A stretch of DNA of 14,654 nucleotides from IMG/VR virus record IMGVR_UViG_2541047722_000008, positions 1 to 14,654 of that record. One strand, 5' to 3'. The notes under the pieces were generated by a model. The model searched no databases and was not told the DNA's origin. It worked only from the letters and a program-made list of their open reading frames with translations. Position 1 is the stretch's first letter; each line of letters begins with the position of its first letter. The position numbers and the translations under genes were made by a program. Shown one piece after another: positions 1-14,654 of the stretch. The stretch comes from a virus. Taxonomy: Duplodnaviria > Heunggongvirae > Uroviricota > Caudoviricetes.

Positions 1-1119
1 TCAAATAACCAACTTAACCCATTCCTGACCTCGAGTATCGTTATAGCGATCGGTGGTTGCCTGGACTTTATGTCCTAGTAATGTTTTTGTATCGATACCC
101 TGTGCACGGTACAGCCGTTCTGATAGAGAGCGTTGTTCATGAAATGTTGGCGGAGTTTTTCCTGCTGGTGGAATTATCCCAGCCAGATCCCGTGCTTTGG
201 CAAAGTAGTCGCTCAGGTTGTCTTTACTCATCGGCTTCGGTTGTTTCTGGTGCCGACTATGGATTAGATATGGACTTAATATTCTGTCTCGGCACCCATC
301 AATAACTTCTTTTAACGTTATCCCAATGGCATCACAGCGTAGTGTAAGCGGTAACGCCAGACGCATTCCGGTTTTTCCCTGGGTGATATGCAAGTGTTCG
401 TTCCACACATCTGAAAAACGCATGTGGCAAATGTCATCACGGCGCTGACCAGTAACAATCGCAAGAAGCATTGCGTTACGGATAAAGTGTTTTTCAGGCG
501 TTGCATTGTAAATTTTTTGCCAGTCTTCCATGGTGAGCCTGGCTCTGGTTACTTTAGGGATCGGTTTACGGGTAGCCTCCGGAGGATTCCATCCAGGAGG
601 AACTTCCCCTGCATGCTGTGCTTCTTTATAAATATCAACCCATAATCCACGATTTACTCTCGCTGTGCTGACCATGTCTTTATCCAGCCACTCATCCAGT
701 ATTAATGCAAAGTCTCTTACTTCCAGTTCTTTCAATGGGTGGTTTCCCAGACGGGAAACCAGGTATGCAGCCATTCGGGTTTTTTCTTTGTGAGTTGTAG
801 CTGCAATATCTCCATTTTTCAGTCGCGTGTCCTGTATTTTCAGATATCGATCAACCCATGCCTTTAATCTGATACCCCGACGTTTTGTTGCTGACGGACT
901 TTCATCAATTTTGCGCATGAAATATTCAGCTTCTGCTGCAGCTATTCGCTGATTGGCTGTGGAAGCGATTTTTTCTGCCTTACCTTTGTCTGTTCCGAGT
1001 CCGTGAAATTTTCCAGTCACAGGATTTTTATACTGGTAGTAAACTCTGCCAGTTCTGCGATCAAACTTTTCGTAAAGACCGGCTACGTCAGTGCTGTTTT
1101 TTCGTGGCCTCGGTGACAT
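1..1119 (-). CDS. int: Tyrosine site-specific integrase (lambda Int family)
   Basis: 372-aa ORF, ATG at 1119-1117, stop at 3-1. The C-terminal half carries the tyrosine-recombinase pattern (…GQRRDD…, …HSRHQ…, …LLGHK…, …TDRY). It sits at the prophage end next to an excisionase-like gene. Confidence 0.9.
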   Translation of the reverse strand: MSPRPRKNSTDVAGLYEKFDRRTGRVYYQYKNPVTGKFHGLGTDKGKAEKIASTANQRIAAAEAEYFMRKIDESPSATKRRGIRLKAWVDRYLKIQDTRLKNGDIAATTHKEKTRMAAYLVSRLGNHPLKELEVRDFALILDEWLDKDMVSTARVNRGLWVDIYKEAQHAGEVPPGWNPPEATRKPIPKVTRARLTMEDWQKIYNATPEKHFIRNAMLLAIVTGQRRDDICHMRFSDVWNEHLHITQGKTGMRLALPLTLRCDAIGITLKEVIDGCRDRILSPYLIHSRHQKQPKPMSKDNLSDYFAKARDLAGIIPPAGKTPPTFHEQRSLSERLYRAQGIDTKTLLGHKVQATTDRYNDTRGQEWVKLVI

Positions 1120-1357
1120 GAGTTAAAATCTCCTTCAGTGCATCATCATCGCCAGTATGAATTTCCGGCGCAATTCCCGTTTCACCAGGCCCAACAAATA
1201 CTGCTCGGCGATCTATCAGCCAACGCCCACGAATTTTTTGTGGTCTTGGAACGATGTATCCTAGTTTTCCGTATTTCACCAGGGTAGTGTTTGTTATTGG
1301 GAGACTGAACCGTTTTGGTTTCCACTCGTCGAGCGTTATCAGGTACTGTTCGCTCAT
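1088..1357 (-). CDS. Excisionase-like small DNA-binding protein
   Basis: 89 aa from ATG 1357 (GGAG 8 nt upstream); the six-frame track extends it to a GTG at 1366. Immediately upstream of int with a 32-bp overlap, as in lambdoid xis-int pairs. Function assigned by position and size only. Confidence 0.55.
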   Translation of the reverse strand: MSEQYLITLDEWKPKRFSLPITNTTLVKYGKLGYIVPRPQKIRGRWLIDRRAVFVGPGETGIAPEIHTGDDDALKEILTHVTEATKKQH

Positions 1358-1418
1358 GGCTATCACTCCGGAACGCGCCAGTTGCAGAATATCAACGACA
1401 ACTGGCGACGGTTGAACA

Positions 1419-3860
1419 TTAAAAATCAGCCTGATTCGGGATCAGTTTTTGCCAGATAGCTGAAACGTATTTTGCCTGGTAACGAGCGTCATCAAGTGCA
1501 TTATGGCGCTCACCTTCGAATGGGATAGCAGTTCTGGCATCGAAGTCTATGGCTTTCCCCAGCTCAACGATTGTGCGTACATCGCGATCGTTGTAGTAAC
1601 GCCACGGGCAGGGGATCCCCTGCCGTTCGTATGAACGGCGCAAAATCGTGTTGTCGAAGTTGGCTCCATTTCCCCAGACCTGAACAAAAAATTCACCGGA
1701 GTTTTCGTCGATAAATTCCCGCAATTGTAACAGTGCATCATCTAACGGGATTTCATCGGTCATAATGGCAGATTGCGCTTCGCGTGATTGCTTAAGCCAC
1801 CATTTAATGGTGTCCCGATCAATGACTCCGCCAGCAGTTTCCAGATCGATAGTCTTACTAAATTCCGGTCCCATATCTCCGGTTTGCGGATCGAAAAATA
1901 TTGCACCTATTGAGATGATCGGGGCATCAGGATTTTTTCCCATGGTTTCAAGGTCGATCATTAGATGGTCACACGTCCTGCTGGTGGATGTGATTTCGTG
2001 ATGACCGTTCACCTTAATTGAGTGATCTGCCGTCTCGCCAGTTTTATTATCGCTGGCGTGATGCTGATTGCCGCCAGGGTTCTCCTTGTGTGGATGTTCA
2101 GCGCCTTCCATTTCCTCCGGATCATTTTCCTGAACTTCAACCTGATTCTCTTCATCGAATGTTTCCTGGTATGTTGCGTCGCCCATCACCGCGCCACAAT
2201 CAGGGCAGTTGCCGCCGCCGGTCTGACCGCAGGCGGTGCAGACTTTTTCCGGTTCCTGTTGCGCTACTGATTCGGATTGTTTCGTTTCTGGCTCGTTTTG
2301 TAACGCATTTGGGCTGTTTTGTTCCGCTTTTTGGTCGTTCCGTTCCGATTCATGCTGGTTCTGGTTCACAGAATCGCGAGTCTGGATCCCCTTGACCCAT
2401 TTCGGATCATTAGGGTCGCTAATCCCCTCAACAAATTCACCACGCGATACAGCAAGTAACTTATCGGCGTCAGGCTGGCTGATATTGGCTGCCTGCATAA
2501 TTTTGTTTACTTCGTCAGCGGTGACTTTTACTTGGTTAGCGGAACTCACCTGCGACTGAGCATCCAGCGACTGCGCGTTCTGGCCATGTTCAGTTGTATC
2601 CGGTTCCATTGTTTCAGTTGTTGCCTGTTCACCTGCCATTGCGTCAGATGGTTGTGGTTTTTCTTCTTCTGTTTCACGCTCAGTAACCACCTCGCGGTTA
2701 ATTTCTTCCAGGATATCTTTTTCCGGCGTATGCCGGGCAGCTGTGAGAGTTTCCTTGCTGGGGTTCTCGTGATCAGTTTCCGTCAAATAGGCGTTGATAT
2801 ACCCCTGAAGGCGTCCCGGGTAGTGATAAAATTCAGGGTGTGCGCTTCGGATAAGTGCAAAAATAGCGGCGCGGGAATAGTCCAGAATACCCGGGGTTGC
2901 ACGAAGTGCTGCGGACCATTCTTTGAACGGACTTTCTTTGTTCAGGACTACTTCTTTTGCGCGACGATAAACGCTGCCCGGAATTTCATAAATATTAAAA
3001 TCCATCGGAAGTGTGGCTGCTGCAATCTCCACATCCAGTGTGTCGAGGGTGTGTACTAAATTCGGATTGCGATCGGTTTTGTTCCCACCGCCAGCATTAG
3101 CACCGGAAGCCGTGCGGGTGATGCGTGAAACACGATTTCCTTTCATCCACTCTTTTGTCAGCAGACCCCGATCAGTGTAGTCAGCGTCCAGGTATGCTTC
3201 GAAAAAAGCAGTTATTAGTCCCAGGTCTGAATTACCAGGATTAGGGAAAACTTTGTCAGTGTCACGAACCAGTTTGTGGAGGTCGCGAATCTCCAGCGAG
3301 TCGAGCAGACTGGTTTTATGCGAAATAGCCAGGGCAGTAACAGCCGGTAGTTCTTCAGCCCGTGCAATGTGTAATGCCTGGAGTTCGTCGCGTGAAACGT
3401 GCGTTACTGGTTTTTCGCTGCCGTGTTGAGCAAGCCAACGAATGGGCAGTTCCTGACCGGAGACAGGCAGAAGCATGCTCTCCTCAATCTCAGTCATGTC
3501 TTCGCCGTTGATGTTGGTATTGTCAGTGCTGGCTGGTTTGTCCTGAACAGAGGGGGAAGGGCCGATAAATGTCATTGTGATGCCATCTTTCCCGCCTTTT
3601 TCATAGCGGTTGCAGAATTCAGTATCAAACACGCCTTCTGGCGGAAGGTCGTCAACAACGGGCAAATTGACGCGGACGGGTTTTTTAAAGTCGTCTTCAT
3701 CATAATCGTTGTCATCCATTGCGGTAATGCAGCGGGAGATTGCAACAGATAATTTTTTTGCTGTAGTCCAGTAAAAACCACCTTTAATTCCCAGGCGTTT
3801 TCTTACTTTGTCATTTTTTGCTTCGCAATATAGTGCAAATTCTTCTTTATCAGTGCTCAT
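1419..3860 (-). CDS. Large exonuclease: RecE-like (exodeoxyribonuclease VIII family) N-terminal region, acidic Q/E/N-rich linker, Cys4 zinc-ribbon motif, C-terminal DEDDh (DnaQ-like) 3'-5' exonuclease domain
   Basis: 813-aa ORF. The C-terminal ~180 aa (coords ~1422-1961) carries DEDDh motifs: MIDLETMG (Exo I), VWGNGANFD (Exo II), HNALDDA (Exo III). CTACGQ…CPDCG lies at ~2196-2243. The N-terminal ~300 aa resemble my recollection of the Rac RecE N-terminal region (…[39 protein letters not shown]…). Confidence 0.85.
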
Positions 3861-3953
3861 TATTGGTAAACCTCATCACAGATTTAAGGGTGAACAAATC
3901 TCTGCCATTGCTGACATATAAGAATGAAACTGGATATTTATTACGGTGCTGTT

Positions 3954-4145
3954 TTAAAATCCTGCCGGGATTTCGTTATTATCCTGGTGAATAACTTTAT
4001 CGACCGGGTAACAGTTACCGGGAATTTTCTGTTCGGTTGCTGCAGTCACACACTCCTGCATTGTCCTGTGAACACTGACTGCAATATCAACTGGCTCTCC
4101 GGAAACAAGAAAAAATGTCAGAACAAGTGCAAATGCTGTATTCAT
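3954..4145 (-). CDS. ydfD: YdfD-like small membrane (lysis-type) protein
   Basis: 63 aa from ATG 4145, which overlaps the upstream TGA (ATGA coupling); AGGA sits 8 nt upstream. N-terminal hydrophobic segment MNTAFALVLTFFLVSG. Position right after dicB matches Qin ydfD (63 aa). The track's longer version starts at 4199. Confidence 0.6.
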   Translation of the reverse strand: MNTAFALVLTFFLVSGEPVDIAVSVHRTMQECVTAATEQKIPGNCYPVDKVIHQDNNEIPAGF

Positions 4146-4330
4146 TGCCAGCATCCTTTTTGTATCGGACGTAAACGGGCCAGCATTGAAAGAATGCATA
4201 TTTTATTTAATAACTCCCGTTCGTGTTTTCTCTTGTTAATGGCATCTTCAGTAAATACAGGGTTACTGATAGTGACACCAATTTCAAAACAACCTTCAGA
4301 CGTATTAACGTTTGGTAATAACGTTTCCAT
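4142..4330 (-). CDS. dicB: DicB-like cell-division inhibitor
   Basis: 62 aa (METLLPNVNTSEGCFEIGVTISNPVFTEDAINKRK…), ATG 4330 with GAGGA 7 nt upstream. Same length as, and near-identical to, my recollection of E. coli DicB; located downstream of DicF as in Qin. Confidence 0.75.
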   Translation of the reverse strand: METLLPNVNTSEGCFEIGVTISNPVFTEDAINKRKHERELLNKICILSMLARLRPIQKGCWQ

Positions 4331-4499
4331 TATCGCGTCCTCAACAATGAATTTTGTGATGCAGTGCCTGGTGCCTCCAGGTGACGTTAACCAGTTAACA
4401 ATTAACGCCGGATACAGAGAATCCACCCATAACACTGTTTTTGGTTTTAACTGTTCCGCGTGCGCTTAGCCGCATTCACCGCATCACAAAATTCACTTT

Positions 4500-4557
4500 A
4501 AAAAGGGCGGCAGAGCAGTCACGGAGTAAAACTGATACCGCCAAACGTCACCAGAAA
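4500..4557 (-). ncRNA. dicF: DicF small RNA (ftsZ-targeting sRNA processed from the dicB operon transcript)
   Basis: Minus strand reads TTTCTGGTGACGTTTGGCGGTATCAGTTTTACTCCGTGACTGCTCTGCCGCCCTTTTT, matching the DicF sequence as I recall it, including the 3' GC stem (GGCGG/CCGCC) plus U-run. It lies between the ydfC-like and dicB-like genes as in Qin. Confidence 0.75.
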
Positions 4558-4898
4558 ATTGATAACAGAGGGCGTTGCAGCGGGGTTGTCACTTAAGCGT
4601 ATGGTCAACCTGACAACCCGGTGTCCTCAACGGGGGAAGGAATAACCCCGCCATACTTACCGCCGCGCCATTTCGCGGATTGCCACAACCGGAAGCGCAC
4701 GGTCGACGAAAATTTAACGACAGGCTATCTATGAACCAGCTACCTCGCCGTGCGCTTTCGCGTTATGGTCTGACTTTTCAGGGAAATATCCTTTCAGTAA
4801 ACTGTCAGTGCCGGATGCTCACCCGTGTCCGGCGCACGCACTCCACCTCACCCGTGGAGAACTCCTTAATTACCAACCTTAGCTTCGTTGGTTAGCTA

Positions 4899-5117
4899 TT
4901 AACGCGGGTATGTAATCATTCTGGCAATGCTTAATGCCGCTGCTTTTTCCAGATTGGTGATATCCTGCTCCAGAGCGGACAGATTTTCAGCCTGCTTAGC
5001 CCTGGCTTCATTAGCCCATTTCAGATCCTGCGCTGCATTAATTTTCTGGCGCATCCACTCATAAAGTTCATCATCGGTATAGTCTGGCGCGATGATGACG
5101 GGTTCTCGTTTCTGCAT
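4899..5117 (-). CDS. ydfC: YdfC-like small protein of the dicB operon
   Basis: 72 aa, ATG 5117 with AAGGAG 5 nt upstream. Same length and operon position as Qin YdfC; no motif recognised. Confidence 0.55.
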   Translation of the reverse strand: MQKREPVIIAPDYTDDELYEWMRQKINAAQDLKWANEARAKQAENLSALEQDITNLEKAAALSIARMITYPR

Positions 5118-5209
5118 GTCGGCTCCTTGTGGTTAGCGTTGCCTGCTTTTAACCACGTCAGGCGAGGTGGTATCCTCTGAGGGGTCTGTTACTCGAGAGG
5201 AAATTGGTT

Positions 5210-5410
5210 ATGAATACAATCAAGTTTTCTTGCCCAGAATGTGGTGGCGAAGTCTTTGACACATCCTTTAAGCCGCAGGGCTCTGACAGTTTCGCGGGAG
5301 CCATCTGCAAAAATTGTGGTCACCTTGTAACTGAAGATGAGTCCTCGCAGTTCGATGACGAAATCGTTGACAATATCTTCGGTGCACTCACCAGAGACTT
5401 TCTGAAATAA
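5210..5410 (+). CDS. Small zinc-ribbon protein (CxxC-N19-CxxC) with acidic C-terminal tail
   Basis: 66 aa: MNTIKFSCPECGG…CKNCGH…DESSQFDDEIVDN. ATG 5210 with GAGG 9 nt upstream; codons look typical for E. coli; a strong hairpin follows the stop. It conflicts with the antisense ORF 5189..5545, so this is not certain. Confidence 0.5.
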   Translation: MNTIKFSCPECGGEVFDTSFKPQGSDSFAGAICKNCGHLVTEDESSQFDDEIVDNIFGALTRDFLK

Positions 5411-5456
5411 AGACGCATACCGCTTAGTTACCGCTCTGATAACTCTTACCTGTCCG

Positions 5457-5500
5457 GCAATGGCGCTGATGTCAATATAAAGCGCCATTGCTGCTTCTTT
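5457..5500 (+). terminator. Hairpin (11-bp perfect stem GCAATGGCGCT/AGCGCCATTGC, 13-nt loop) followed by a T-rich stretch; putative terminator for the zinc-ribbon gene
   Basis: Perfect inverted repeat 5457-5467 / 5481-5491, then TGCTTCTTTG. The U-tract is weak, so factor-independent termination is uncertain. Confidence 0.35.
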
Positions 5501-5619
5501 GCCGATCCCGTGATGCCTTCCATTCTGATGTTTGACTTCGCCCACTGAGAAATCCTCTGTTTCCCCTTAACGCCGGGGTAGCGGAACTGTTTGCTGAGAA
5601 CACCGTGCGGTGTCTTGAT

Positions 5620-5680
5620 GAATAAAATTTAGAATAACCTAAGATATGTGGTCAAGATTTTTATGTAGAAAAACCTAAGT
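5620..5680 (-). promoter_or_regulatory. Candidate repressor-controlled leftward promoter (PdicB / pL analogue) with CTTAGGTT operator half-sites
   Basis: Minus strand: -35 TTGACC (5655-5650), 18-bp spacer, -10 TAAATT (5631-5626). The 8-mer AACCTAAG (= CTTAGGTT on the minus strand) occurs at 5636-5643 and 5672-5679, the same motif found at the divergent promoter on the other side of the repressor gene. Confidence 0.4.
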
Positions 5681-5753
5681 TTTTTGATGTGAAAAACACA
5701 AGTGTTTGAAAGTTTGTGCTTTTTATTACAGGGTGTGGAGAAAAAAGGGAGGG

Positions 5754-6161
5754 TTATTTGTTTGCGCTTCTTTTGCGAGCTTTGAGTAGTTCTTCAAAAA
5801 GTTTGTTGAAATTTTCAACTCGAGCACGCATCTCTGACAACAGGGCCTTTTGCTCTGACTCAGGCAGTGCGTCGAACAGTTGAAGTAACTCTTTTTGATC
5901 TTCTGTCAGAAGGGCTGGCTGATTATCCGGGATCGGTTCGCCTGGTTGTTTATCTTCATCCCCAAAAAGAAGCCAAGTCGGTGAGCACTGAAGCGCTTGG
6001 CTCAGTGCGAATAATCTTTTCCCCGCCGGCTGTGTTTCATCTCTTTCCCATTGAGAAATTGTTACGTGAGCCACTTTGACCAGCTTACCTAATGCGGCCT
6101 GAGACAGTTTTAATTTTTTACGCCTATGTAAGAGGCGAGCACCGAAGGTTTCGTTTTTCAT
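5754..6161 (-). CDS. dicA: DicA-like prophage repressor (XRE-family HTH; no LexA-like peptidase domain)
   Basis: 135 aa with an N-terminal HTH (…LKLSQAALGKLVKVAHVTISQWERDETQP…) and the C-terminal segment …LFALSQALQCSPTWLLFGDEDKQP…MRARVENFNKLFEELLKARKR, closely matching my recollection of E. coli DicA (135 aa). No Ala-Gly/Ser-Lys autocleavage module. Confidence 0.85.
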   Translation of the reverse strand: MKNETFGARLLHRRKKLKLSQAALGKLVKVAHVTISQWERDETQPAGKRLFALSQALQCSPTWLLFGDEDKQPGEPIPDNQPALLTEDQKELLQLFDALPESEQKALLSEMRARVENFNKLFEELLKARKRSANK

Positions 6162-6237
6162 ATTAGGGAATTCTAATTTTTCTTGACTTAGGTTTCTCTA
6201 CGATCTAGTTTCCTTAGGAAAATCTAAGGAGCTCGAT
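6162..6237. promoter_or_regulatory. Divergent promoter/operator region between the repressor and the cro-like gene
   Basis: Plus strand: -35 TTGACT (6183-6188), 17-bp spacer, -10 TAGTTT (6206-6211), AAGGAG (6226-6231) 6 nt before ATG 6238. CTTAGGTT at 6187-6194 overlaps the -35; further copies CCTTAGG (6212-6218) and CTAAGG (6224-6229). On the minus strand a TAGAAT (6175-6170) lies ~8 nt before the repressor ATG, suggesting a leaderless PRM-like transcript. Confidence 0.5.
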
Positions 6238-6465
6238 ATGTTGAAAATTGATGCTATAGCGTTTTTTGGCAGCAAAACAAAGCTTGCCAATGCCGCAGGA
6301 GTTAGGCTGGCAAGCATTGCTGCATGGGGGGAACTGGTTCCTGAAGGTCGCGCGATGCGCCTGCAAGAGGCATCCGGCGGGGAACTTCAGTACGACCCCA
6401 AAGTTTATGATGAATATCGTAAGGCAAAGCGGGCGGGGCGGTTGAACAATGAAAATCACCCCTGA
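6238..6465 (+). CDS. dicC: DicC/YdaS-family Cro-like regulator
   Basis: 75 aa (MLKIDAIAFFGSKTKLANAAGVRLASIAAWGELVPEGRAMRLQEASGGELQYDPKVY…), divergent from the repressor, strong SD. Matches my recollection of DicC/YdaS-family proteins. Confidence 0.8.
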   Translation: MLKIDAIAFFGSKTKLANAAGVRLASIAAWGELVPEGRAMRLQEASGGELQYDPKVYDEYRKAKRAGRLNNENHP

Positions 6466-7000
6466 ACAGGTTTGTGAGGCTCTGGATGCCTGGGTATGCC
6501 GACCAGGAATGACACAGGAGCAGGCGACGATATTAATCACGGAAGCGTTCTGGGCTCTGGAAGAACGCCCGAACATCGATGTTCAACGTGTCACGTTTGA
6601 TGATGGTGTGGTTGATCAACGGGCGCTGGGCGTTAACCGGGTGAAGATATTCGAACGCTGGAAAGCTATCGACACCAGGGATAAGCGGGAAAAATTCACG
6701 GCGCTGATTCCGGCAATTATGGAGGCTATCCGGATCAGTGATTTCAGGTTGTATTGTGAAATTACTGACGGAAAAAGCATTACGTACATGATCGCCAGGT
6801 TAAACAAAGAATATGGCGATGTGGTGGAGTCCGGACTGCTTTTTGCAGATCCTGCTGTTGTGGAACGTGAGACTGACGAGCTTATAGAAAAAGCTATTGC
6901 TTTCAAGCATGCGTATCGTCAGCAATACCAACATTACTTTGCAGATAAACAAATATCTGTCTGGGGTTCGTATGAGTATCGATGCACTACGATGGGCTAA
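6449..7000 (+). CDS. YdaT-like protein (proposed CII-like regulator / putative toxin of the YdaS-YdaT pair)
   Basis: 183 aa, overlapping the end of dicC by 17 bp. The N-terminus (MKITPEQVCEALDAW…) and its position directly after the Cro-like gene match the YdaT family as I recall it; assignment is by synteny and general resemblance. Confidence 0.6.
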   Translation: MKITPEQVCEALDAWVCRPGMTQEQATILITEAFWALEERPNIDVQRVTFDDGVVDQRALGVNRVKIFERWKAIDTRDKREKFTALIPAIMEAIRISDFRLYCEITDGKSITYMIARLNKEYGDVVESGLLFADPAVVERETDELIEKAIAFKHAYRQQYQHYFADKQISVWGSYEYRCTTMG

Positions 7001-8012
7001 AAAGGTGAAAACCGGCAGTTCATCCAGTAAGTCAGTATTAACCTGGCTTGCTGATATGTGCGGTGCCGATTTGTGTGCATACCCGTCTGTATCTGCACTG
7101 GCAGAAGTAACGGAACTGAACAAAAAGACTGTGCAGGACAGCTTACGACACCTGATGGAGATTGGGTTAATTGTTGATACCGGTGAGAGAAAAGGCCGAA
7201 CAAAGCAGATCGTAGTGTACCGACTTATCGGTGTTGAAGAAAGTGTTACCGAGGCTGAATACACCCAAAAATGGGAGTCTTTAAAGGTGGGTAAAATTGG
7301 TACTGTTAATAAAAACAGTACCGAAAATGGCTATGTTTCAGCACAAAACAGACCCAAAAACGGAACTCTTAGCTGCATGGAAAATAACCAAAGACACCCA
7401 AATTTTCCATCAAAGACACCCAAAAATGGATCACGGAACCCAAAGGAACCCAAAGATCTAAACCCCACACATAACACACGCGAGAGTGCTCCGACCAGTG
7501 AGCAGGAAGTTTTGTCGTTACAGGCAGCACCCCCTGTATTCCTGGATGGCCTGAGCGAACCCATCGGAAAATTTCCGATGACCGATAGCTGGTATCCGTC
7601 ACGGGATTTTCGACGACGGGCTGCGTTGTGGGGGATGGCTTTGCCGGAGACAGAATTTACACCTGCTGAACTTGCCGCCTTCCGGGACTACTGGACAGCG
7701 GAGGGGAAAGTGTTTACGCAGATTCAGTGGGAGCAGAAATTCGCCCGTCACGTAAATCACGTCAGGGCGCAGGTTAAACCAGTCAGCAAGGGGGTAAACC
7801 ATGCAGCAGCACCAGGTGGCACCGCATCACGGGCAGTTCAGGAAATTCGGGCAGCACGTGAGCAGTGGGAACGTGAAAACGGATTTATCAGCGACGGAAA
7901 CGGCCTGGAAGCTGTGGGAGCTCATGGGGGAGGTTTATTCGAACCGCTGGACCCAGAAGAATGGGGCCGCACCTTCGAAGCTCTGGATTGCACAGATTGG
8001 CGCGATGACTGA
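6972..8012 (+). CDS. Replication initiator, O-like: N-terminal winged-helix DNA-binding domain plus C-terminal DnaT-like domain
   Basis: In-frame ATG 6972 (MSIDALRWAKK…) preceded by GGGG. N-terminal HTH (…SVSALAEVTELNKKTVQDSLRHLMEIGLIV…); C-terminal region (…FTPAELAAFRDYWTAEG…) resembles the DnaT C-terminal domain. The ORF has good E. coli-like codon usage up to its stop at 8012, overlapping the next gene by 212 bp. The track's start at 6897 is inside the previous gene. Confidence 0.7.
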   Translation: MSIDALRWAKKVKTGSSSSKSVLTWLADMCGADLCAYPSVSALAEVTELNKKTVQDSLRHLMEIGLIVDTGERKGRTKQIVVYRLIGVEESVTEAEYTQKWESLKVGKIGTVNKNSTENGYVSAQNRPKNGTLSCMENNQRHPNFPSKTPKNGSRNPKEPKDLNPTHNTRESAPTSEQEVLSLQAAPPVFLDGLSEPIGKFPMTDSWYPSRDFRRRAALWGMALPETEFTPAELAAFRDYWTAEGKVFTQIQWEQKFARHVNHVRAQVKPVSKGVNHAAAPGGTASRAVQEIRAAREQWERENGFISDGNGLEAVGAHGGGLFEPLDPEEWGRTFEALDCTDWRDD

Positions 8013-8466
8013 GCAGCAAATCCGACAGGTCTGCCGCCAGTGCATGGACCGCTGCCGGGCGGGTGAAACATGGCCTCCGGACCTGGCTGAGTTTGTGGCA
8101 CTGATTTCGGAAAGCGGAGCCAATCCATTCGGTCTGACGGTGGATGCCGTGATGGAGGAGTACCGTCGCTGGCGCAACGAGTCCTGGCGATACGACGGGA
8201 GCGATAAATACCCGTGGTCTCAGCCTGTGCTGTATCACATTTGCCTCGAGATGCGTTCAAAGGGGATTGAGCGGCAGATGACCGAAGGGGAGTTAAAACG
8301 GCTTGCAGAACGGCAGCTGACGAAATGGGCAAAGCATGTTAGTAACGGCCTGAGCGTTCCGCCAGTCCGGCGACAACTGGCGGCCCCCAAACGTCCTGCG
8401 GGACCAACGCCAATTGAGTTGCTGAAACAGGAATATGAACGCCGGAAAGCGGCTGGGTTTGTCTGA
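7801..8466 (+). CDS. Lambda P-like replication protein (helicase loader family)
   Basis: 221 aa from ATG 7801 (AAGGGGG 6 nt upstream). Segments …PPDLAEFVAL…, …YPWSQPVLYHICLEMR…, …TEGELKRLAERQL… align with lambda P (…PSPGQFVAWC…, …YPWKSNAHYWLVTNLY…, …TDAELRRKAADEL…) as I recall it. An alternative start at ATG 8005 (ATGACTGA overlap with the O stop) would give 153 aa. Confidence 0.6.
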   Translation: MQQHQVAPHHGQFRKFGQHVSSGNVKTDLSATETAWKLWELMGEVYSNRWTQKNGAAPSKLWIAQIGAMTEQQIRQVCRQCMDRCRAGETWPPDLAEFVALISESGANPFGLTVDAVMEEYRRWRNESWRYDGSDKYPWSQPVLYHICLEMRSKGIERQMTEGELKRLAERQLTKWAKHVSNGLSVPPVRRQLAAPKRPAGPTPIELLKQEYERRKAAGFV

Positions 8467-8498
8467 TTTGAGAAGTAATTTTTACCGGGAGGAAATTT

Positions 8499-9269
8499 AT
8501 GGAGACTGTTTTTGACGCACTGAAAGCGATGGGAAAAGCCACGTCGGTAGAGCTGGCTGCGCGACTTGATATCAGTCGTGAAGAAGTGCTGAACGAGCTG
8601 TGGGAACTGAAAAAGGCTGGCTTCGTTGATAAAAGCGTATACACCTGGCGTGTGGCTGGCGAAGGTGAATCCGGGGTAGCCGAAGAGCAGCCAGCACAAT
8701 CTGAAGCACCGGATGTGCTAACCAGGGAGGTCGAACGAAAAGTTACCGCTGACATGATGATTGAGTTTATCGGTCAGGAGGGTGCTAAAACGAGTGAGGA
8801 ACTGGCGGGTAAGTTCGGTGTCAGCACTCGCAAGGTTGCTTCCACGCTGGCGGTAGTAACCGCAACGGGGCGGCTGGCACGCGTAAACCAGAACGGTAAA
8901 TTTCGCTACTGCATGCCGGGCGAGAATTTACCAGTAAAGCCGAAAGTCGCATCGGTAACGGAAAATGATGGTAAAGCCTTTCCTCAGCCAGCCGGCGTTG
9001 CGTTACCAGTACAGGAAGCTGCAACACAGGAAGATATTAAAACAGAAACTGTGGCGGACATTGTGCAGTCGTTGCCATCGTTCACCGAAACGCGAGCGGA
9101 TGACCTGATTTTACCATCGCTGCATATGGCAAACCGCGAACTGCGTCGGGCGAAAAATCATGTCCAGAAGTGGGAGCGTGTCTGCGCCGCGCTGCGGGAG
9201 TTGAACAAGCATCGGGATATTGTTCGACAGATTACTGATTTTTCCCGCCGTGTTGCATCGGAAAAGTGA
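8499..9269 (+). CDS. DUF1627-like prophage protein (two winged-helix-like repeats)
   Basis: 256 aa, GGGAGG 6 nt before ATG. Starts [41 protein letters not shown]… with a second similar repeat (…[33 protein letters not shown]…). Resembles a conserved family downstream of replication genes in E. coli lambdoid prophages. Confidence 0.65.
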
Positions 9270-9284
9270 TTGCCGGAGGCGCTT

Positions 9285-9689
9285 ATGGCAAAAGTATTTA
9301 CACAAGAAGAGCGGGAAAAAATTAAGGGGCAGATTGTTGAACTTGTACGTCTGAGCGGTCGCGAGACGTTACGGCAACTGGAAGCGAAAACAGGTGCGAC
9401 AAGATATCTGATGAGTGTTCTCGCCAGAGAGCTGGTTGCCAGTGGCGATGTATACAATTCTGGCTACGGGTTATTTCCGTCTGAACAGGCTCGTAAGGAC
9501 TGGCAAAACGCCCGCAAAAAACTATCGAGGGCAAAGGCGAAGAAACCGGTTGTGGTTGCTCCGGACCTTATCTGGTCATTACCAGACGGAGAAATACGCC
9601 GCTACGACAGGCGTCAGAACATGATTTGCCGTGAGTGCCGGGAAAGCGAAGTTATGCAGCGTATACTAACGTTCTATTGGGGAATATAG
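9285..9689 (+). CDS. Hypothetical protein (134 aa)
   Basis: ATG 9285 with GGAGG 5 nt upstream (the track's start at 9270 is a TTG). Contains a CRECRE motif near the C-terminus; no family recognised. Confidence 0.55.
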   Translation: MAKVFTQEEREKIKGQIVELVRLSGRETLRQLEAKTGATRYLMSVLARELVASGDVYNSGYGLFPSEQARKDWQNARKKLSRAKAKKPVVVAPDLIWSLPDGEIRRYDRRQNMICRECRESEVMQRILTFYWGI

Positions 9690-9704
9690 CCACTAAATAA
9701 GGTA

Positions 9705-10016
9705 ATGAACCAAATGAACACGGAAAAAGCGAAAACGCAGCTCAGGATAATGCTTGCCGGTCCGGCTGCGAGTTATACGACACATTCACCAGCCATAAAA
9801 AAGGTTCTTGATGAACTGGAAGCCAAAGACAAGCGCATTGCAGAACTGGAGGCAAGGGAAGTCCAGCTACCGGCTGGCTATGAACTTCGATATGGACACC
9901 CGATAAATGCTGATGAGCGCCATGTCATGATACCTAAGGAAAATGGCAGCTGGATTTATCTGGCTGATTTAGAGCGCGCACTACGTGTTGCTGGCATTCG
10001 CATCAAAGGAGAGTGA
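9705..10016 (+). CDS. Hypothetical protein, possibly ead/Ea22-like (103 aa)
   Basis: Central coiled-coil-like segment (VLDELEAKDKRIAELEAREVQL); closely spaced with its neighbours. Family assignment is tentative. Confidence 0.5.
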   Translation: MNQMNTEKAKTQLRIMLAGPAASYTTHSPAIKKVLDELEAKDKRIAELEAREVQLPAGYELRYGHPINADERHVMIPKENGSWIYLADLERALRVAGIRIKGE

Positions 10017-10017
10017 C

Positions 10018-10374
10018 GTGGAAATAAAACCAGAAGATGAGTTAAGTAATATTGTTTTATTTCCGGTAAAAGAAGATGACCCACGTAATCAGGTTAATTT
10101 TCTTTATGAGCCATCGGAAAGACCATATTGCCATCACGCTTCTGTCCGGGTTGATGAAAAAGAGCGTCAGGTCCGCTGTAAAATCTGCGGTGCAGTTGTG
10201 GAGCCGTTTGACTGGATGCTCTCTGTGGCGAAAAGAGAAACCAGACTGGCAGATGATGTAAGGCTATTGCGTCAGGAGGAACGGGAAAGGCGGAAAAATA
10301 TAGAAAAGCTAATTCAGATTGAGCGTAACGCAAAAGCGCGGATACGCAGAGCGACAAAATCCAGAACTGAATAA
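10018..10374 (+). CDS. Hypothetical zinc-finger protein with basic coiled-coil tail (118 aa)
   Basis: GTG 10018 with AGGAG 6 nt upstream, one nt after the previous stop. Motif C-HH…C-KIC-G (YCHHASVRVDEKERQVRCKICG) and an R/K/E-rich C-terminus. Confidence 0.5.
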   Translation: MEIKPEDELSNIVLFPVKEDDPRNQVNFLYEPSERPYCHHASVRVDEKERQVRCKICGAVVEPFDWMLSVAKRETRLADDVRLLRQEERERRKNIEKLIQIERNAKARIRRATKSRTE

Positions 10375-10469
10375 TTAAATTTAGCACTGTTAAAAATTTA
10401 ATCCTTAACCGGAGGGATTTCTGTACCCTCAGAACATCAGGAGGCCGCCTGAAAGGGCAGTAATGAAAA

Positions 10470-11021
10470 ATGACTGAATTAACAAAAGAGCAATTAATCG
10501 AAGAAGCTAAATTTAAAATAGCGATTGCGAAATGCCACCCTAATTCAGAGATGGCACGGGTAGAGGGTGAGTTATTCAAAATTGCACTGGCATCGCTGGA
10601 AGCGGAGCCTGTTGGTGAATTTTATGAGTATAAGCCGGGCGGCTGGTATCAGCATTCGGCTGGAGATAAAGCGCCAAAGTGGATACAACTCTACGCTGTG
10701 CCGCCAGCGCTCGCAGCACCTGAAGGACTGGTTAAAGCAGTGCGCTTTTATGAACAGGTAAAGCGTGAGAATCCACCAGTCGAAACAGGAGCATGGAAAG
10801 ATGCTGTTGATTGGGTACTCAAAGAGGCCTGCTGTGCTGTCATTCTGGGTAAAGCCGACAATCCATTAGCATCCAGTAACCAAGTTGGCGAATTAACAAT
10901 GTGGGTTAAACGACTGGTCAGTCAACTGAAAAAAGCTAATCCAGACTGCAAATTACCGGAGAAGGCGATGGACTACCTGAAGCGGAACGAACTGATAAGC
11001 GCGGAGGATGTTTTGCGATGA
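10470..11021 (+). CDS. Hypothetical protein (183 aa)
   Basis: Long ORF with E. coli-like codon usage, in the same orientation as its neighbours; weak SD; no motif recognised. Confidence 0.55.
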   Translation: MTELTKEQLIEEAKFKIAIAKCHPNSEMARVEGELFKIALASLEAEPVGEFYEYKPGGWYQHSAGDKAPKWIQLYAVPPALAAPEGLVKAVRFYEQVKRENPPVETGAWKDAVDWVLKEACCAVILGKADNPLASSNQVGELTMWVKRLVSQLKKANPDCKLPEKAMDYLKRNELISAEDVLR

Positions 11022-11134
11022 CCTGGCCTGAAGCATTCACAACGGTAGGAATTGCAATGGCGGTGGCGCTGGTGGTGTATTCGATTTGCCGCTGGGGGGA
11101 AGGTATTAAAAAACGCCCCGCACACAGACGTTGA
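11018..11134 (+). CDS. Small single-pass membrane peptide (38 aa), translationally coupled to the upstream gene
   Basis: ATG 11018 overlaps the upstream stop (ATGA). Peptide MTWPEAFTTVGIAMAVALVVYSICRWGEGIKKRPAHRR: hydrophobic helix plus basic tail. Below the length cut-off of the ORF track. Confidence 0.35.
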   Translation: MTWPEAFTTVGIAMAVALVVYSICRWGEGIKKRPAHRR

Positions 11135-11262
11135 GCGCCTGAGATGTGGGGATAGGGAGTTAGTTAAATAGTTGTACAACAATACCTGATTTTATATTGA
11201 AGCAAGAAATAGGTTGCTACATATTGAATCATGCGTGTGTACGTCAAATATGGGAGGTCATC

Positions 11263-11352
11263 GTGCTGGTTCTGAAATGTGCGCTGGCTATTGCGGCAGT
11301 AATGGCAATTTATTGTCTTGTTATCGTTCTTATGAATCACCTCTCTGATTGA
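11263..11352 (+). CDS. Candidate small hydrophobic peptide (29 aa)
   Basis: GTG 11263 with GGGAGG 5 nt upstream. Peptide (V/M)LVLKCALAIAAVMAIYCLVIVLMNHLSD is almost entirely hydrophobic. Ends at the hok promoter -35. Expression unproven. Confidence 0.25.
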   Translation: MLVLKCALAIAAVMAIYCLVIVLMNHLSD

Positions 11353-11359
11353 TTTTATA

Positions 11360-11388
11360 TTGGCGAGGTGACGTGAGTTAAGTAGAAT
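11360..11388 (+). promoter_or_regulatory. Candidate hok mRNA promoter
   Basis: -35 TTGGCG (11360-11365), 17-bp spacer, -10 TAGAAT (11383-11388). The downstream leader (…GCTTGAGGCTATCTGCC…GGCAGATAGAGAAAAGCCCC…) resembles the folded 5' region of R1 hok mRNA as I recall it. Confidence 0.4.
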
Positions 11389-11449
11389 TGCTGCGGGTGC
11401 TTGAGGCTATCTGCCTCGGGCATGAACACCAACGGCAGATAGAGAAAAG

Positions 11450-11520
11450 CCCCAGTTAACATTACGCGTCCTGCAAGACGCTTAACATTAATCTGAGGCT
11501 CAATCCATGCTGAACACATG
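11450..11520 (-). ncRNA. sok: Candidate Sok antisense RNA (approximate boundaries)
   Basis: Minus-strand promoter-like elements: -35 TTGCCT (11550-11545), 17-bp spacer, -10 TAACCT (11527-11522), antisense to the mok SD/start region as in hok/sok loci. A GCGTC/GACGC hairpin and U-rich stretch lie at ~11440-11480. Ends not determined. Confidence 0.35.
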
Positions 11521-11719
11521 TAGGTTAGCCTCTTACGTGCCGAAAGGCAAGGAGAAGCAGGCTATGAAGCAGCAAAAGGCGATGCTAATCGCCCTGATCG
11601 TCATCTGTTTAACCGTCATAGTGACGGCACTGGTAACGAGGAAAGACCTCTGCGAGGTACGAATCCGAACCGGCCAGACGGAGGTCGCTGTCTTCACAGC
11701 TTACGAACCTGAGGAGTAA
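11507..11719 (+). CDS. mok: Mok (modulator of killing) reading frame: N-terminal extension in frame with hok
   Basis: ATG 11507 with GAGG 8 nt upstream; MLNTCRLASYVPKGKEKQA then reads into hok, as I recall for chromosomal mokC/hokC. Confidence 0.55.
   Translation: MLNTCRLASYVPKGKEKQAMKQQKAMLIALIVICLTVIVTALVTRKDLCEVRIRTGQTEVAVFTAYEPEE
11564..11719 (+). CDS. hok: Hok/Gef-family type I toxin
   Basis: 51 aa MKQQKAMLIALIVICLTVIVTALVTRKDLCEVRIRTGQTEVAVFTAYEPEE: the Hok/Gef signature (TM helix, then TRKDLCEV.IRTGQTEVAVF.AYE). AAGGAG 9 nt upstream. Confidence 0.9.
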   Translation: MKQQKAMLIALIVICLTVIVTALVTRKDLCEVRIRTGQTEVAVFTAYEPEE

Positions 11720-11788
11720 GAGACCAGGCGGGGGAGAAATCCCTCGCCACCTCTGATGAGTCAGGCATCCTCAATGCACCCACACTTA

Positions 11789-11820
11789 ACCCGCTTCGGC
11801 GGGTTTTTGTTTTTATTTTC
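11789..11820 (+). terminator. Rho-independent terminator downstream of hok
   Basis: ACCCGC-TTCG-GCGGGT hairpin followed by TTTTTGTTTTTATTTT. Confidence 0.65.
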
Positions 11821-11939
11821 AACGCGTTTGAAGTTTTGGATGGTGCCGGAATAGAATCAAAAATACTTAAGTAGCGCGCAGGGAGAAGAGGGATGGACCC
11901 CGAACAGGGGAGTGCTATTTATCTGGAAGGATTCTGTTG

Positions 11940-12197
11940 ATGAAAATCGAAGAATTACGTGAAATTTTTAGTGAAGATGGCCTCTATACTGTGCGCGTTG
12001 AGAATGGCGCTATTGTCAGCCACTGCCGTATTAAATGTTTACAGTCTCAACAAAGGAAGAGTGGAGCTGCGTTAATTCATTTTGTGGATGGGCTTGTGAC
12101 GGATGGTTTTATTTTGCGTGCAAATGAATTTGTCACATCGTTGCCGTCTCTGAAAAAAGCTGGGATTAAGGCTGGTTTTTCTGCTTTTGAAGATTAG
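11940..12197 (+). CDS. Hypothetical small protein (85 aa), possibly Rem-like by position
   Basis: ATG 11940 (the track starts 3 nt earlier at a TTG), GGAAGGA upstream. Located between hok and the DUF968 gene, where Qin carries rem; no motif recognised. Confidence 0.45.
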   Translation: MKIEELREIFSEDGLYTVRVENGAIVSHCRIKCLQSQQRKSGAALIHFVDGLVTDGFILRANEFVTSLPSLKKAGIKAGFSAFED

Positions 12198-12266
12198 TGA
12201 ATTCATCTACAATTCAGCGCAGGGCTGAACCCCTGTTGAGTAACACTGTGCCACCGGAGAAAGCCG

Positions 12267-12545
12267 ATGGCGCAAAATTCCAGACTACACAATTCTGATA
12301 ATTCAGCCGTCTTTGTCAGCAGGCACGGGCGGCGTTCTCACACATTCAAATATGACTGGTACCAGCATGACCCCTGCACTGAAGAACAGGCCGAATGGCT
12401 GATTCAGAACTACCGCAGACGTGGGTATGTGTTTAGGAAAGCCCTCACCCTCGATTATCGTCTCTGGATAATCTCCGTCAGGCTCCCTTATTCCGAACGC
12501 CCGCCGCGTCCGTCCCGCACATTCCAGCAACGCATCTGGAGGTAA
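12267..12545 (+). CDS. Hypothetical protein (92 aa)
   Basis: ATG 12267 with GGAGA 6 nt upstream; its stop is one nt before the next gene's start. No motif recognised. Confidence 0.5.
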   Translation: MAQNSRLHNSDNSAVFVSRHGRRSHTFKYDWYQHDPCTEEQAEWLIQNYRRRGYVFRKALTLDYRLWIISVRLPYSERPPRPSRTFQQRIWR

Positions 12546-12546
12546 C

Positions 12547-13602
12547 GTGCGGGTATTGCTTCGACCTGTTCCTGTACCGGAACTTGGGCTGGTGGTCCTT
12601 AAGCCTGGCCGTGAATCCATGCAGGTATTTCATAACCCTCGAGTGCTGGTGGAGCCGGAACCGAAAAGCATGCGTAATCTGCCGTCCGGGGTCGTTCCTG
12701 CCGCTCGCCAGCCGCTGGTGGAAGACAAAACATTGCTGCCGTTTTTCAGTAACGCACGGGTGATTCGTGCTGCTGGTGGTGCTGGTGCATTGTCTGACTG
12801 GCTGTTGCGCCATATTAAATCCTGCCAGTGGCCACACGGCGATTATCATCACAGCGAAACCGTCATTCACTGTTATGGTACCGGCGCAATGGTGTTGTGC
12901 TGGCACTGCGACAACCAGCTGCGTGACCAGACATCCGAATCACTCGAGCAACTTGCTCATCAAAACCTGTCAGCATGGATGATTGACGTCATCGGTCACG
13001 CAATAAGCGGTACGCAGGAGCGTGAATTATCTTTGGCTGAATTATCCTGGTGGGCGGTCCGCAATCAGGTGGCGGACGCGCTACCGGAAGCGGTATTACG
13101 TCGTTCGCTGGGGTTGCGTGCGGAAAAAATCCGCTCAATGTACCGTGAAAGCGATATCGTACCGGGAGAGCAGACCGCCACCAGCATACTGAAGCAGCGC
13201 ACAAAAAATCTTGCGCCGCTGCCTCACGCCCACCAGCAAAACCCGCCACAGGAAAAGACGGTGGTCAGCATTGCCGTTGATCCGGAGTCACCGGCTCAGT
13301 ATCTCCAGCGCCAGAAACCACAACGGGAAGAGATGCCTGTATACACGCGCTGGGTAAAAACGCAGAAATGCATGACGTGCGGTAATCAGGCAGATGATCC
13401 GCATCACATCATTGGTCATGGACTGGGAGGGATGGGAACAAAGGCTGATGATTTGTTTGTTATTCCGCTGTGCCGTAAATGTCATAACGAACTGCACGCC
13501 GGGGTAAAAGATTTTGAAGAAAAACACGGCAGCCAGCTGTTGTTGCTGATTCGTTTTTTAATGCACGCGAGAAATTCGGGTGTCCTGAAGTGGAAAGCAT
13601 GA
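12547..13602 (+). CDS. DUF968-family protein with C-terminal HNH/His-Me-finger-like motif (YdfU-like)
   Basis: 351 aa, GTG 12547 with GGAGG upstream. C-terminal motif …CMTCGNQADDPHHIIGHGLGGMGTKADDLFVIPLCRKCHNELHAG… (Cys pairs flanking HH…H…N…H). Position before rusA/Q matches Qin ydfU (~349 aa). Confidence 0.7.
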   Translation: MRVLLRPVPVPELGLVVLKPGRESMQVFHNPRVLVEPEPKSMRNLPSGVVPAARQPLVEDKTLLPFFSNARVIRAAGGAGALSDWLLRHIKSCQWPHGDYHHSETVIHCYGTGAMVLCWHCDNQLRDQTSESLEQLAHQNLSAWMIDVIGHAISGTQERELSLAELSWWAVRNQVADALPEAVLRRSLGLRAEKIRSMYRESDIVPGEQTATSILKQRTKNLAPLPHAHQQNPPQEKTVVSIAVDPESPAQYLQRQKPQREEMPVYTRWVKTQKCMTCGNQADDPHHIIGHGLGGMGTKADDLFVIPLCRKCHNELHAGVKDFEEKHGSQLLLLIRFLMHARNSGVLKWKA

Positions 13603-13968
13603 ATGACTGAACGCATAGAATTTGTTTTGCCTTACCCGCCGACGGTGAATACCTACTGGCGACGTCATGGCAATACGTATTTCATCTCGGAGGCCGGAAA
13701 GCGTTATCGCCGTGATGTGGCGCTAATTGTTCGCCAGCAGCGGCTGAAATTAAACCTGTCCGGAAGGCTGGCGATAAAGATTATTGCAGAGCCACCGGAT
13801 AAGCGCCGTCGTGACTTGGACAATATCCTGAAGGCACCACTGGATGCGCTGACGCATGCCGGACTACTTATAGACGACGAGCAGTTTGATGAAATCAATA
13901 TTGTGCGCGGTCAGCTCGTTCCTGGTGGGCGGCTGGGGATAAAAATCACAGAACTGGAGTGCGCATGA
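13603..13968 (+). CDS. rusA: RusA Holliday-junction resolvase
   Basis: 121 aa with the RusA hallmarks (…LPYPPTVNTYWRRH…, …PDKRRRDLDNILKAPLDALT…, …GGRLGIKITEL…). Start immediately follows the upstream stop. Confidence 0.9.
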   Translation: MTERIEFVLPYPPTVNTYWRRHGNTYFISEAGKRYRRDVALIVRQQRLKLNLSGRLAIKIIAEPPDKRRRDLDNILKAPLDALTHAGLLIDDEQFDEINIVRGQLVPGGRLGIKITELECA

Positions 13969-14654
13969 ATAACCAGTATTTACAGTTTGTGCGTGAGCAG
14001 CTCATTATCGCCACCGCTGATTTGAGTGGGGCAACAAAAGGTCAGCTTGAAGCCTGGCAAGAGAATGCCATGTTCGATACAGGGCGTTACAGGCGAAAAA
14101 AAATCCGGTACCGCGATGAAGTGACTGGAAAAATGATAACGCGGGATAATCCACCAATCCCGGGAAAGCAATCGCTGGCGAAGGGGACGTCAATACCTCT
14201 GGTCAGTCCGGTTGAGTTTTCGACATCATCGTGGCGGCGGGCTGTTCTGTCTCTTGAAGAACATCATAAAGCCTGGTTGTTGTGGTGTTACAGCGGGAGT
14301 ATTTGTTGGGAATATCAGATCGCGATAACACAGTGGGCGTGGAATGAATTTAATACTCAATCCGGTACCAGAAAAATTGCAGGGAAAACGCAGGAACGCC
14401 TGAAAAAATTAATCTGGCTGGCGGCGCAGGCAGTAAAAGCAGAACTTTTTGGTGGGGAAAGTTATGAATACCAGGAGCTGGCATTACTGGCGGGAGTGAC
14501 AACTAAAAACTGGTCCAAAACATTTACTCGTCACTGGGTTGCAATGAAACACATTTTTCACCGACTTGATAGTGAGGCTTTATTGTTTGTAATGAGAACA
14601 CGTTCAAAACAAAAGGCGGCATTTTCAAAGCAAAGTGTTGCAAAAGTAGATTGA
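13965..14654 (+). CDS. Q-like late-gene antitermination protein (assigned mainly by position after rusA)
   Basis: 229 aa, ATG 13965 overlapping the rusA stop (ATGA), GGAG 5 nt upstream; stop at the window end. rusA followed by Q is the conserved lambdoid order; I did not recognise a specific Q-family motif. Confidence 0.6.
   Translation: MNNQYLQFVREQLIIATADLSGATKGQLEAWQENAMFDTGRYRRKKIRYRDEVTGKMITRDNPPIPGKQSLAKGTSIPLVSPVEFSTSSWRRAVLSLEEHHKAWLLWCYSGSICWEYQIAITQWAWNEFNTQSGTRKIAGKTQERLKKLIWLAAQAVKAELFGGESYEYQELALLAGVTTKNWSKTFTRHWVAMKHIFHRLDSEALLFVMRTRSKQKAAFSKQSVAKVD

Follow-up and report, generated by a model that had tools for sequence, protein, structure and literature searches.

The 14,654-nucleotide (nt) stretch analyzed here, positions 1 to 14,654 of the Caudoviricetes record IMGVR_UViG_2541047722_000008 in IMG/VR (hereafter the window), represents, by its gene content, the early part of a lambdoid prophage of the Qin/Rac type. 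On its minus strand it carries a coding sequence (CDS) with an ATG start for an 813-amino-acid (aa) protein that joins a RecE-type N-terminal module to a DEDDh exonuclease domain (1419..3860 (-); coordinates are positions in the window, and minus-strand features are marked (-)). The gene fills the ydfE slot, as the final gene of a dicBF-type early-left operon. We propose, at a probability of roughly 55%, that the product is a RecT-independent, Mg2+-dependent 3'-5' DNA exonuclease, which would be made from this DicA-repressed operon and act on free 3' ends. Judged by its domains, the protein belongs to a known exonuclease family and bears a known RecE head.

A Pfam scan of the 813-aa protein assigned residues 632 to 803 (1452..1967 (-)) to the Rv2179c-like family PF16473 (7e-68; 228.2 bits against a gathering cutoff of 27), with model positions 2 to 177 of 177 covered. 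The DEDDh signature that a first-pass annotation of this DNA had read from the C terminus is complete: Exo I (DLE, residues 636 to 638), Exo II (NGANFD, 731 to 736), and Exo III (HNALDD, 786 to 791) are all present and supply the catalytic residues D636, E638, D736, H786, and D791. Two family alignments show D636 and H786 without variation. E638 and D736 do not vary in one of them and reach at least 90% conservation in the other, and D791 reaches that level in both alignments. AlphaFold2 modeled residues 630 to 810 with a predicted local distance difference test (pLDDT) score of ~97. Together, these features show what is, by residue and model, a complete and intact two-metal DEDDh site.

Foldseek comparison of this domain with the Protein Data Bank (PDB) placed T4 DexA (8KEL) first (1.8e-9, probability 1.00), ahead of RNase T, Orn, and REXO2. 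The matches were all DEDDh proteins, with no PD-(D/E)XK protein among them, and the PD-(D/E)XK fold that the first-pass annotation had named as the outcome contrary to its assignment was thus not predicted. T4 DexA (8KEL/8KEN, 1.9e-6) was also the sole match in a sequence search of the PDB. When PDB sequences were searched with a family profile built from 62 members, DexA (1.4e-22) came far ahead of DnaQ (1.8e-6) and the oligoribonucleases (Orn, ~5e-4), so the nearest solved relative is a DNA exonuclease; no Rv2179c chain appeared among the profile matches at E below 1e-3. Like DexA (exonuclease A), the 813-aa protein would be a DEDDh 3'-5' exonuclease, and DexA is its closest solved structure (Foldseek template modeling score of 0.65 to 0.72, target-normalized). 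However, the two domains share 21 to 28% identity, and DexA is a standalone 227-aa protein of a lytic phage, with extra insertions of its own and a C-terminal extension.

The T4 DexA structure was solved in a 2025 paper (Kang et al., NAR 2025; PMC12153337) that also describes EcD, an E. coli DexA homologue that is reported to digest the DNA of T4 while sparing unmodified DNA and, when expressed from a plasmid, to protect E. coli from T4. The same paper proposes a defense called "HREX", in which DexA W152 is the proposed reader of 5-hydroxymethylcytosine (5hmC) and the loss in EcD of DexA D90 (Ala78) is said to confer selectivity (PMC12153337). We rebuilt the EcD sequence from the published primers via IMG/VR rather than from an accession (forward primer exact, reverse primer one base off), which gave a 189-aa protein with Ala78; the primers have no match in the window. 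The EcD-like open reading frame (ORF) and the exonuclease domain of the 813-aa protein are 39% identical over 183 aa (1e-38), fall in the same short-form Rv2179c-like/DexA clade, share all DEDDh residues, and both lack the DexA-specific insertions. In a multiple alignment, Tyr756 aligns to DexA W152, which is Trp in EcD, and Asp708 aligns to DexA D90, a tetramer contact, which is Ala78 in EcD; around the latter position the alignment is uncertain, being weak in this helix. Both proteins are encoded in prophage early operons, but EcD is a standalone 189-aa protein of a P2-like prophage, whereas the 813-aa protein carries a 615-aa RecE head. The EcD-like ORF lies between cox-like genes and a Dam methylase gene in the P2-like early operon, and this prophage location goes unmentioned in PMC12153337. 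We found the ORF at 5679-6248 (-) of locus L031 and also in L013, L018, L028, L029, and L034; its neighbors are int, a helix-turn-helix repressor, Cox, DUF4761, DUF4754, the exonuclease itself, a ParE-like protein, and the Dam methylase.

The rest of the 813-aa protein bears out the earlier description of a RecE-like N terminus. Residues 57 to 189 (3294..3692 (-)) match Pfam Exonuc_VIII (PF06630; 1.7e-35, 123 bits against a cutoff of 25), and K-12 RecE residues 50 to 591 align by BLASTP to residues 58 to 615 at 59% identity, with the acidic stretches and the Cys4 motif included. The NCBIfam RecE equivalog model NF007259 aligns over its positions 1 to 602 of 877 to residues 1 to 615 (1.8e-282), with a score (939.6 bits) under the 1,269-bit equivalog cutoff. 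The E-values of the domain matches rule out chance. K-12 RecE ends in a PDDEXK-like domain (PF12684, residues 615 to 850), which the Pfam scan did not find in the 813-aa protein, whose C terminus is PF16473. DNA homology to Rac ends at window position 2024, corresponding to residue 613 here and residue 589 of RecE, and the breakpoint (residues 613 to 615, RecE 589 to 591; 2016..2024 (-)) falls in the linker directly ahead of the RecE PD-(D/E)XK fold. The published RecE nuclease fragment comprises residues 564 to 866, the N-terminal part being described as "of unknown function" (PMC11611040). By this comparison, the two proteins have in common an N-terminal module made up of the PF06630 region, helical domains, acidic linkers, and Cys4 motif, and only the catalytic domain is exchanged, at the native linker/nuclease boundary of RecE: RecE ends in a PD-(D/E)XK 5'-3' nuclease, whereas the 813-aa protein ends in the DEDDh domain.

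The head begins with a small alpha/beta domain (residues 1 to 100; 3561..3860 (-); pLDDT ~92-97), of which the first 57 residues are unlike K-12 RecE and similar to the head of protein P0125. A helical domain follows (residues 142 to 250; 3111..3437 (-); 94% identity to K-12 RecE), and then a helical core domain (residues 257 to 392; 2685..3092 (-)) that is conserved in every RecE-type head in the comparison, with a more distant counterpart in the YdfE-type head. An acidic, mostly disordered linker occupies residues 393 to 625 (1986..2684 (-)), broken by two short helices (residues 448 to 472) and the zinc ribbon; in the AlphaFold2 model of the whole protein, pLDDT is <50 at residues 398 to 448, 490 to 536, and 563 to 625. 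The acidic region reported previously is confirmed by 61 D/E against 22 K/R in residues 351 to 650. The Cys4 motif, earlier given as CxxC-N8-CxxC, is present at residues 541 to 555 (2196..2240 (-); pLDDT ~82-85), but its spacer is 7 residues rather than 8 (C541-x2-C544-x7-C552-x2-C555). K-12 RecE has a Cys4 motif too (CNACGQTGGDNCPDC), and the zinc ribbon and acidic linker thus read as ordinary features inherited from RecE. In a family alignment, the Cys4 motif is confined to the E. coli Rac-like subgroup and missing from most of the diverged fusions. Diverged fusions of other clusters carry a conserved G-x-G-x-F-S-x3-L-M-G-type motif where the Cys4 ribbon would be.

To compare the gene with K-12 recE segment by segment, we used the Nei-Gojobori method. 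The ratio of nonsynonymous to synonymous substitutions (dN/dS) was 0.16 in the helical domain at residues 142 to 250, 0.13 in the zinc ribbon, and 0.19 in the helices at residues 448 to 472; it was 0.35 to 0.43 in the alpha/beta head (residues 58 to 100) and the helical core (residues 257 to 392) and 0.76 to 0.93 in the linker segments at residues 490 to 536 and 563 to 615. Synonymous divergence (dS) ranged from 0.18 to 1.8 along the gene. By these ratios the folded segments of the RecE head are under purifying selection, and the combined dN/dS and dS pattern indicates a functional yet strongly mosaic module. Searching for homologues with residues 1 to 615 retrieved nothing but nearly identical proteins, and hence no new diversity.

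The genomic setting can be compared with that of recE. Both genes lie late in a lambdoid early-left operon, near xis and int, but recE (Rac, K-12 b1350) is followed by recT, ralR, and rcbA, whereas the 813-aa gene is followed directly by xis. Leftward, the order in the window is int, xis, the 813-aa exonuclease gene, ydfD, dicB, the DicF small RNA (sRNA), ydfC, ydfB, and ydfA, and then a DicA-like repressor. The lambda-type integrase occupies 1..1119 (-) and the excisionase, directly downstream of the exonuclease gene, 1088..1357 (-), with no recT, ral, or rcbA between it and the exonuclease gene. The claim that no annealase gene intervenes is upheld: just 52 nt lie between the exonuclease stop codon and the xis ORF, and among the larger ORFs of the window from int to Q, scans against Pfam and PHROG found no RecT, Bet, or Erf family member. 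The annotation of a 96.6% identical locus by the Prokaryotic Genome Annotation Pipeline (PGAP) is likewise without an annealase. Directly upstream, in the same operon, lie ydfD (a DUF1482 lysis protein; 3954..4145 (-)) and, farther upstream, dicB (4142..4330 (-)); the DicF sRNA between ydfC and dicB (4505..4556 (-); Rfam, 76.7 bits) marks the operon as dicBF-type. We found no terminator and no coding-strand promoter between ydfD and the exonuclease gene. A promoter of the gene's own was considered and rejected, there being no sigma-70-like promoter on the coding strand upstream of it, as was an internal start at Met634, which has no convincing Shine-Dalgarno sequence ahead of it. According to the literature, DicA represses dicBp, and the listed members of the dicBF operon include ydfE; of these members, only DicF, DicB, and YdfD are characterized (PMC10448788).

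Other annotated loci have the same arrangement. In every one inspected, the fusion lies ahead of the genes for integration (xis-int in loci with a called excisionase), and recT is present in none of them; more than one assembly and several different attachment sites are represented. A standalone 189-aa homologue from Salmonella, 60% identical, occupies the same pre-xis slot next to a DndB-like (PF14072) gene, with which it might form a two-gene module. At that locus (L003 4743-6570), the exonuclease directly follows the DndB-like gene, and the prophage also has yfdP- and yfdQ-like genes. Elsewhere (L040 12324-12992), a related prophage sits a few kilobases from host exoX (RNase_T family), which is probably a coincidence.

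K-12 has the pseudogene ydfE (b1577) in the slot after ydfD. IS2 cuts this copy after residue 256, with loss of the nuclease domain (L038 4079-4999), and K-12 is without this nuclease because of that insertion. The K-12 YdfE fragment matches, at 99% identity, the N-terminal 256 aa of P0121, an intact ydfE-type allele product of 823 aa, whose tail from residue 453 is nearly identical to the 813-aa protein from residue 443 on, zinc ribbon and whole exonuclease domain included. An E. coli B derivative has an intact ydfE-type 3'-5' exonuclease, annotated as an 823-aa CDS, in the same slot of Qin at rspB (L043 2634-5105). The gene studied here shares with ydfE of the Qin dicBF operon its position after dicB-ydfD and before xis/int, but its first ~440 aa differ from the ydfE-type allele, and only the helical core (residues 270 to 345) is distantly related to the YdfE-type head. 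K-12 YdfE was rejected as a direct orthologue of the head, since its fragment (residues 1 to 256) has no BLASTP similarity to the 813-aa protein. On this comparison, the 813-aa gene is an intact ydfE-slot allele with a RecE-type head, and K-12 ydfE is its IS2-truncated sister allele.

The first-pass annotation had called this architecture unusual, which did not hold up. Among 5,426 complete E. coli genomes, 1,245 contain the full gene at ≥80% coverage, annotated as "exonuclease" or "3'-5' exonuclease", and 4,055 (75%) contain the 605-bp DEDDh tail, at 8,157 places and with up to 7 per genome. DNA of the canonical RecE nuclease domain was found in 1,730 of these genomes, at 1,827 places, so that by copies the DEDDh tail outnumbers it ~4.5:1; canonical recE overlaps recT in every hit among the matches listed. 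Protein databases hold many identical 813-aa entries with a precomputed PF06630+PF16473 architecture, and entries of this type are named "exonuclease", "3'-5' exoribonuclease", or, for some, "exodeoxyribonuclease VIII". In a set of 1.8 billion cluster representatives, the DEDDh domain occurs in 12,173 clusters, which among the matches listed are mostly standalone proteins of ~180 to 200 aa plus a series of long forms. Both Pfam domains were found in 9 of the 10 long forms tested, giving at least nine diverged 50%-identity clusters with the fusion, and the exonuclease domains of other fusion clusters are 56 to 62% identical to this one. Intact ORFs of 805 to 823 aa occur on hundreds of contigs, and the exonuclease tail is carried by at least three different heads. 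One apparent standalone homologue (P0073) was rejected, as its locus has masked runs of N and really encodes a fusion with a YdfE-type head. The architecture is established, diverged, and already catalogued, and it is the predominant annotated form in E. coli. The first-pass annotation had also allowed that this might be the common annotated exodeoxyribonuclease VIII form with a known recombination function; the first half of that description is correct, but the known recombination function is not part of it. Literature searches for a RecE + Rv2179c fusion, for Rv2179c in phage, and for HREX follow-ups returned nothing beyond the 2025 DexA/EcD paper.

The product is modular: a ~590-aa RecE N-terminal module, with folded domains, acidic disordered linkers, and a small zinc ribbon, is combined with a DexA/EcD-type DEDDh domain standing in for RecE's PD-(D/E)XK 5'-3' nuclease. 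On the reading we favor, the enzyme would use Mg2+ to remove nucleotides from free 3' ends. DNA is the most likely substrate and is favored over RNA because no other characterized relatives come nearly as close as DexA and EcD. It would act without an annealase, and hence not as a SynExo recombinase, and would be made mainly on derepression of the prophage operon. Its targets could be broken host DNA, competing or incoming phage DNA, or 3' ends in need of trimming, by analogy with T4 DexA and EcD. Whichever nuclease is attached, the RecE head probably serves to tether or oligomerize it; because the same head bears nucleases of opposite polarity, its job is probably targeting or assembly and not catalysis. 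The earlier suggestion of a role outside classical RecET recombination is plausible on these grounds, as there is no RecT partner, and it fits the blocking of T4 by EcD (PMC12153337).

Several points weigh against this proposal. A Northern blot detected no K-12 transcript through ydfE, though the K-12 copy is truncated (PMC10448788). The polarity and the substrate (DNA or RNA) are deduced from homologues of 21 to 39% identity, and the Pfam family to which the domain belongs, PF16473, is named for an exoribonuclease. The structure search gave no fold match for the RecE head, and the predicted template modeling (pTM) score of the whole-protein AlphaFold2 model is 0.36, at which the arrangement of the domains is not readable from the model.

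The protein could instead be a prophage anti-phage defense nuclease of the HREX type, which would protect the lysogen by leaving unmodified host DNA alone and attacking the 3' ends of incoming phage DNA with 5hmC-type modification. We consider this possible but unlikely. The 39% identity to EcD and the shared lack of DexA-specific insertions speak for it, as do the block to T4 by plasmid-borne EcD (PMC12153337), the presence in the same operon of DicB, a phage-exclusion protein (PMC6832061), and the retention of the tail in 75% of E. coli genomes, where many copies probably lie in defective prophages. However, membership in the HREX class is not established, because the positions that are Trp (W152) and Ala78 in EcD are Tyr756 and Asp708 here (in an alignment that is uncertain around Asp708). 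The gene lacks its own promoter and belongs to a DicA-repressed operon. E. coli B is the classical permissive host of T-even phages, and a derivative of it has an intact allele, which also tells against such a defense. A search with PADLOC gave no significant match (one weak match, E = 0.03). Finally, EcD itself is encoded in a P2-like early operon, so a lytic-cycle role is equally possible for EcD.

It is also conceivable, though we hold it just as tentatively, that the RecE module is a general carrier independent of the nuclease attached. It would then bring either a 5'-3' PD-(D/E)XK nuclease (with RecT) or a 3'-5' DEDDh nuclease (without RecT) to a common target, for example a host factor or the ends of DNA, and the DEDDh version would serve as a weapon in inter-phage conflict or host takeover. 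If so, three quarters of E. coli genomes would hold such a weapon, which K-12 would have lost through an IS2 insertion.

Less probable still is a 3'-5' exoribonuclease or small-oligonucleotide nuclease acting on RNA 3' ends or nucleotide second messengers, with a part in RNA processing or in blunting signaling-based immunity. The 813-aa protein matches, over the full model length, the Pfam family named for M. tuberculosis Rv2179c, RefSeq calls many copies "3'-5' exoribonuclease", and RNase T, Orn, and REXO2 are clear structural neighbors. The family name describes Rv2179c as an exoribonuclease, in contrast to the DNA exonuclease proposed here. In the profile search, however, DexA, which acts on DNA, far outranked Orn, and Rv2179c was missing from the matches at the threshold given above; EcD, the sole tested close homologue, was assayed on DNA.

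We give little credence to a recombination or repair exonuclease that would work with RecA/RecFOR, the prophage RusA, or an unlinked RecT, the head providing a linear-linear function. In its favor, RecE has the same head, and linear-linear recombination is improved by the full-length form of that enzyme (PMC11611040); the prophage also encodes RusA, and T4 DexA takes part in intron homing (PMC12153337). Against this, all SynExo partners have a polarity opposite to the one predicted here, and an annealase is linked in none of the loci inspected, whereas canonical recE overlaps recT among the matches listed. A selectively neutral mosaic relic with no maintained function is very improbable: strong mosaicism (dS 0.18 to 1.8, at least three heads), the K-12 pseudogene, and the linker segments with dN/dS of 0.76 to 0.93 would suit it, but the intact ORFs on hundreds of contigs, the invariant or nearly invariant catalytic residues, the dN/dS of 0.13 to 0.43 in folded head segments, and the keeping of the fusion across clusters whose exonuclease domains are 56 to 62% identical do not.

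The remaining genes of the window lie rightward of the repressor, in the order cro, ydaT, a DnaT-like gene, P, DUF1627, DUF977, hokD/sok, DUF968, RusA, and Q. The sok antitoxin RNA (11395-11569 (+), 113.5 bits) overlaps the hokD toxin ORF (11507-11719 (+)). The DUF968 (YdfU-type) protein (12547-13602 (+)), next to RusA and Q, also matches an HNH-type nuclease model (HNHc_6, 1.4e-7).

The value of these findings lies in correcting "ExoVIII" annotations and in flagging a very common prophage nuclease. Many proteins named "exodeoxyribonuclease VIII" are not RecE-type 5'-3' enzymes, and support for recombineering should not be assumed of them. That one head bears nucleases of opposite predicted polarity and is under purifying selection narrows the ideas on what the head does. 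The EcD/HREX defense enzyme is itself a prophage early gene product, of the same clade as the 813-aa exonuclease, and strains with intact alleles, E. coli B derivatives included, are suited to testing defense against lytic-cycle roles. The DEDDh enzyme is one of the most widespread prophage nucleases of E. coli, and its function may have been little studied partly because ydfE is truncated in K-12.

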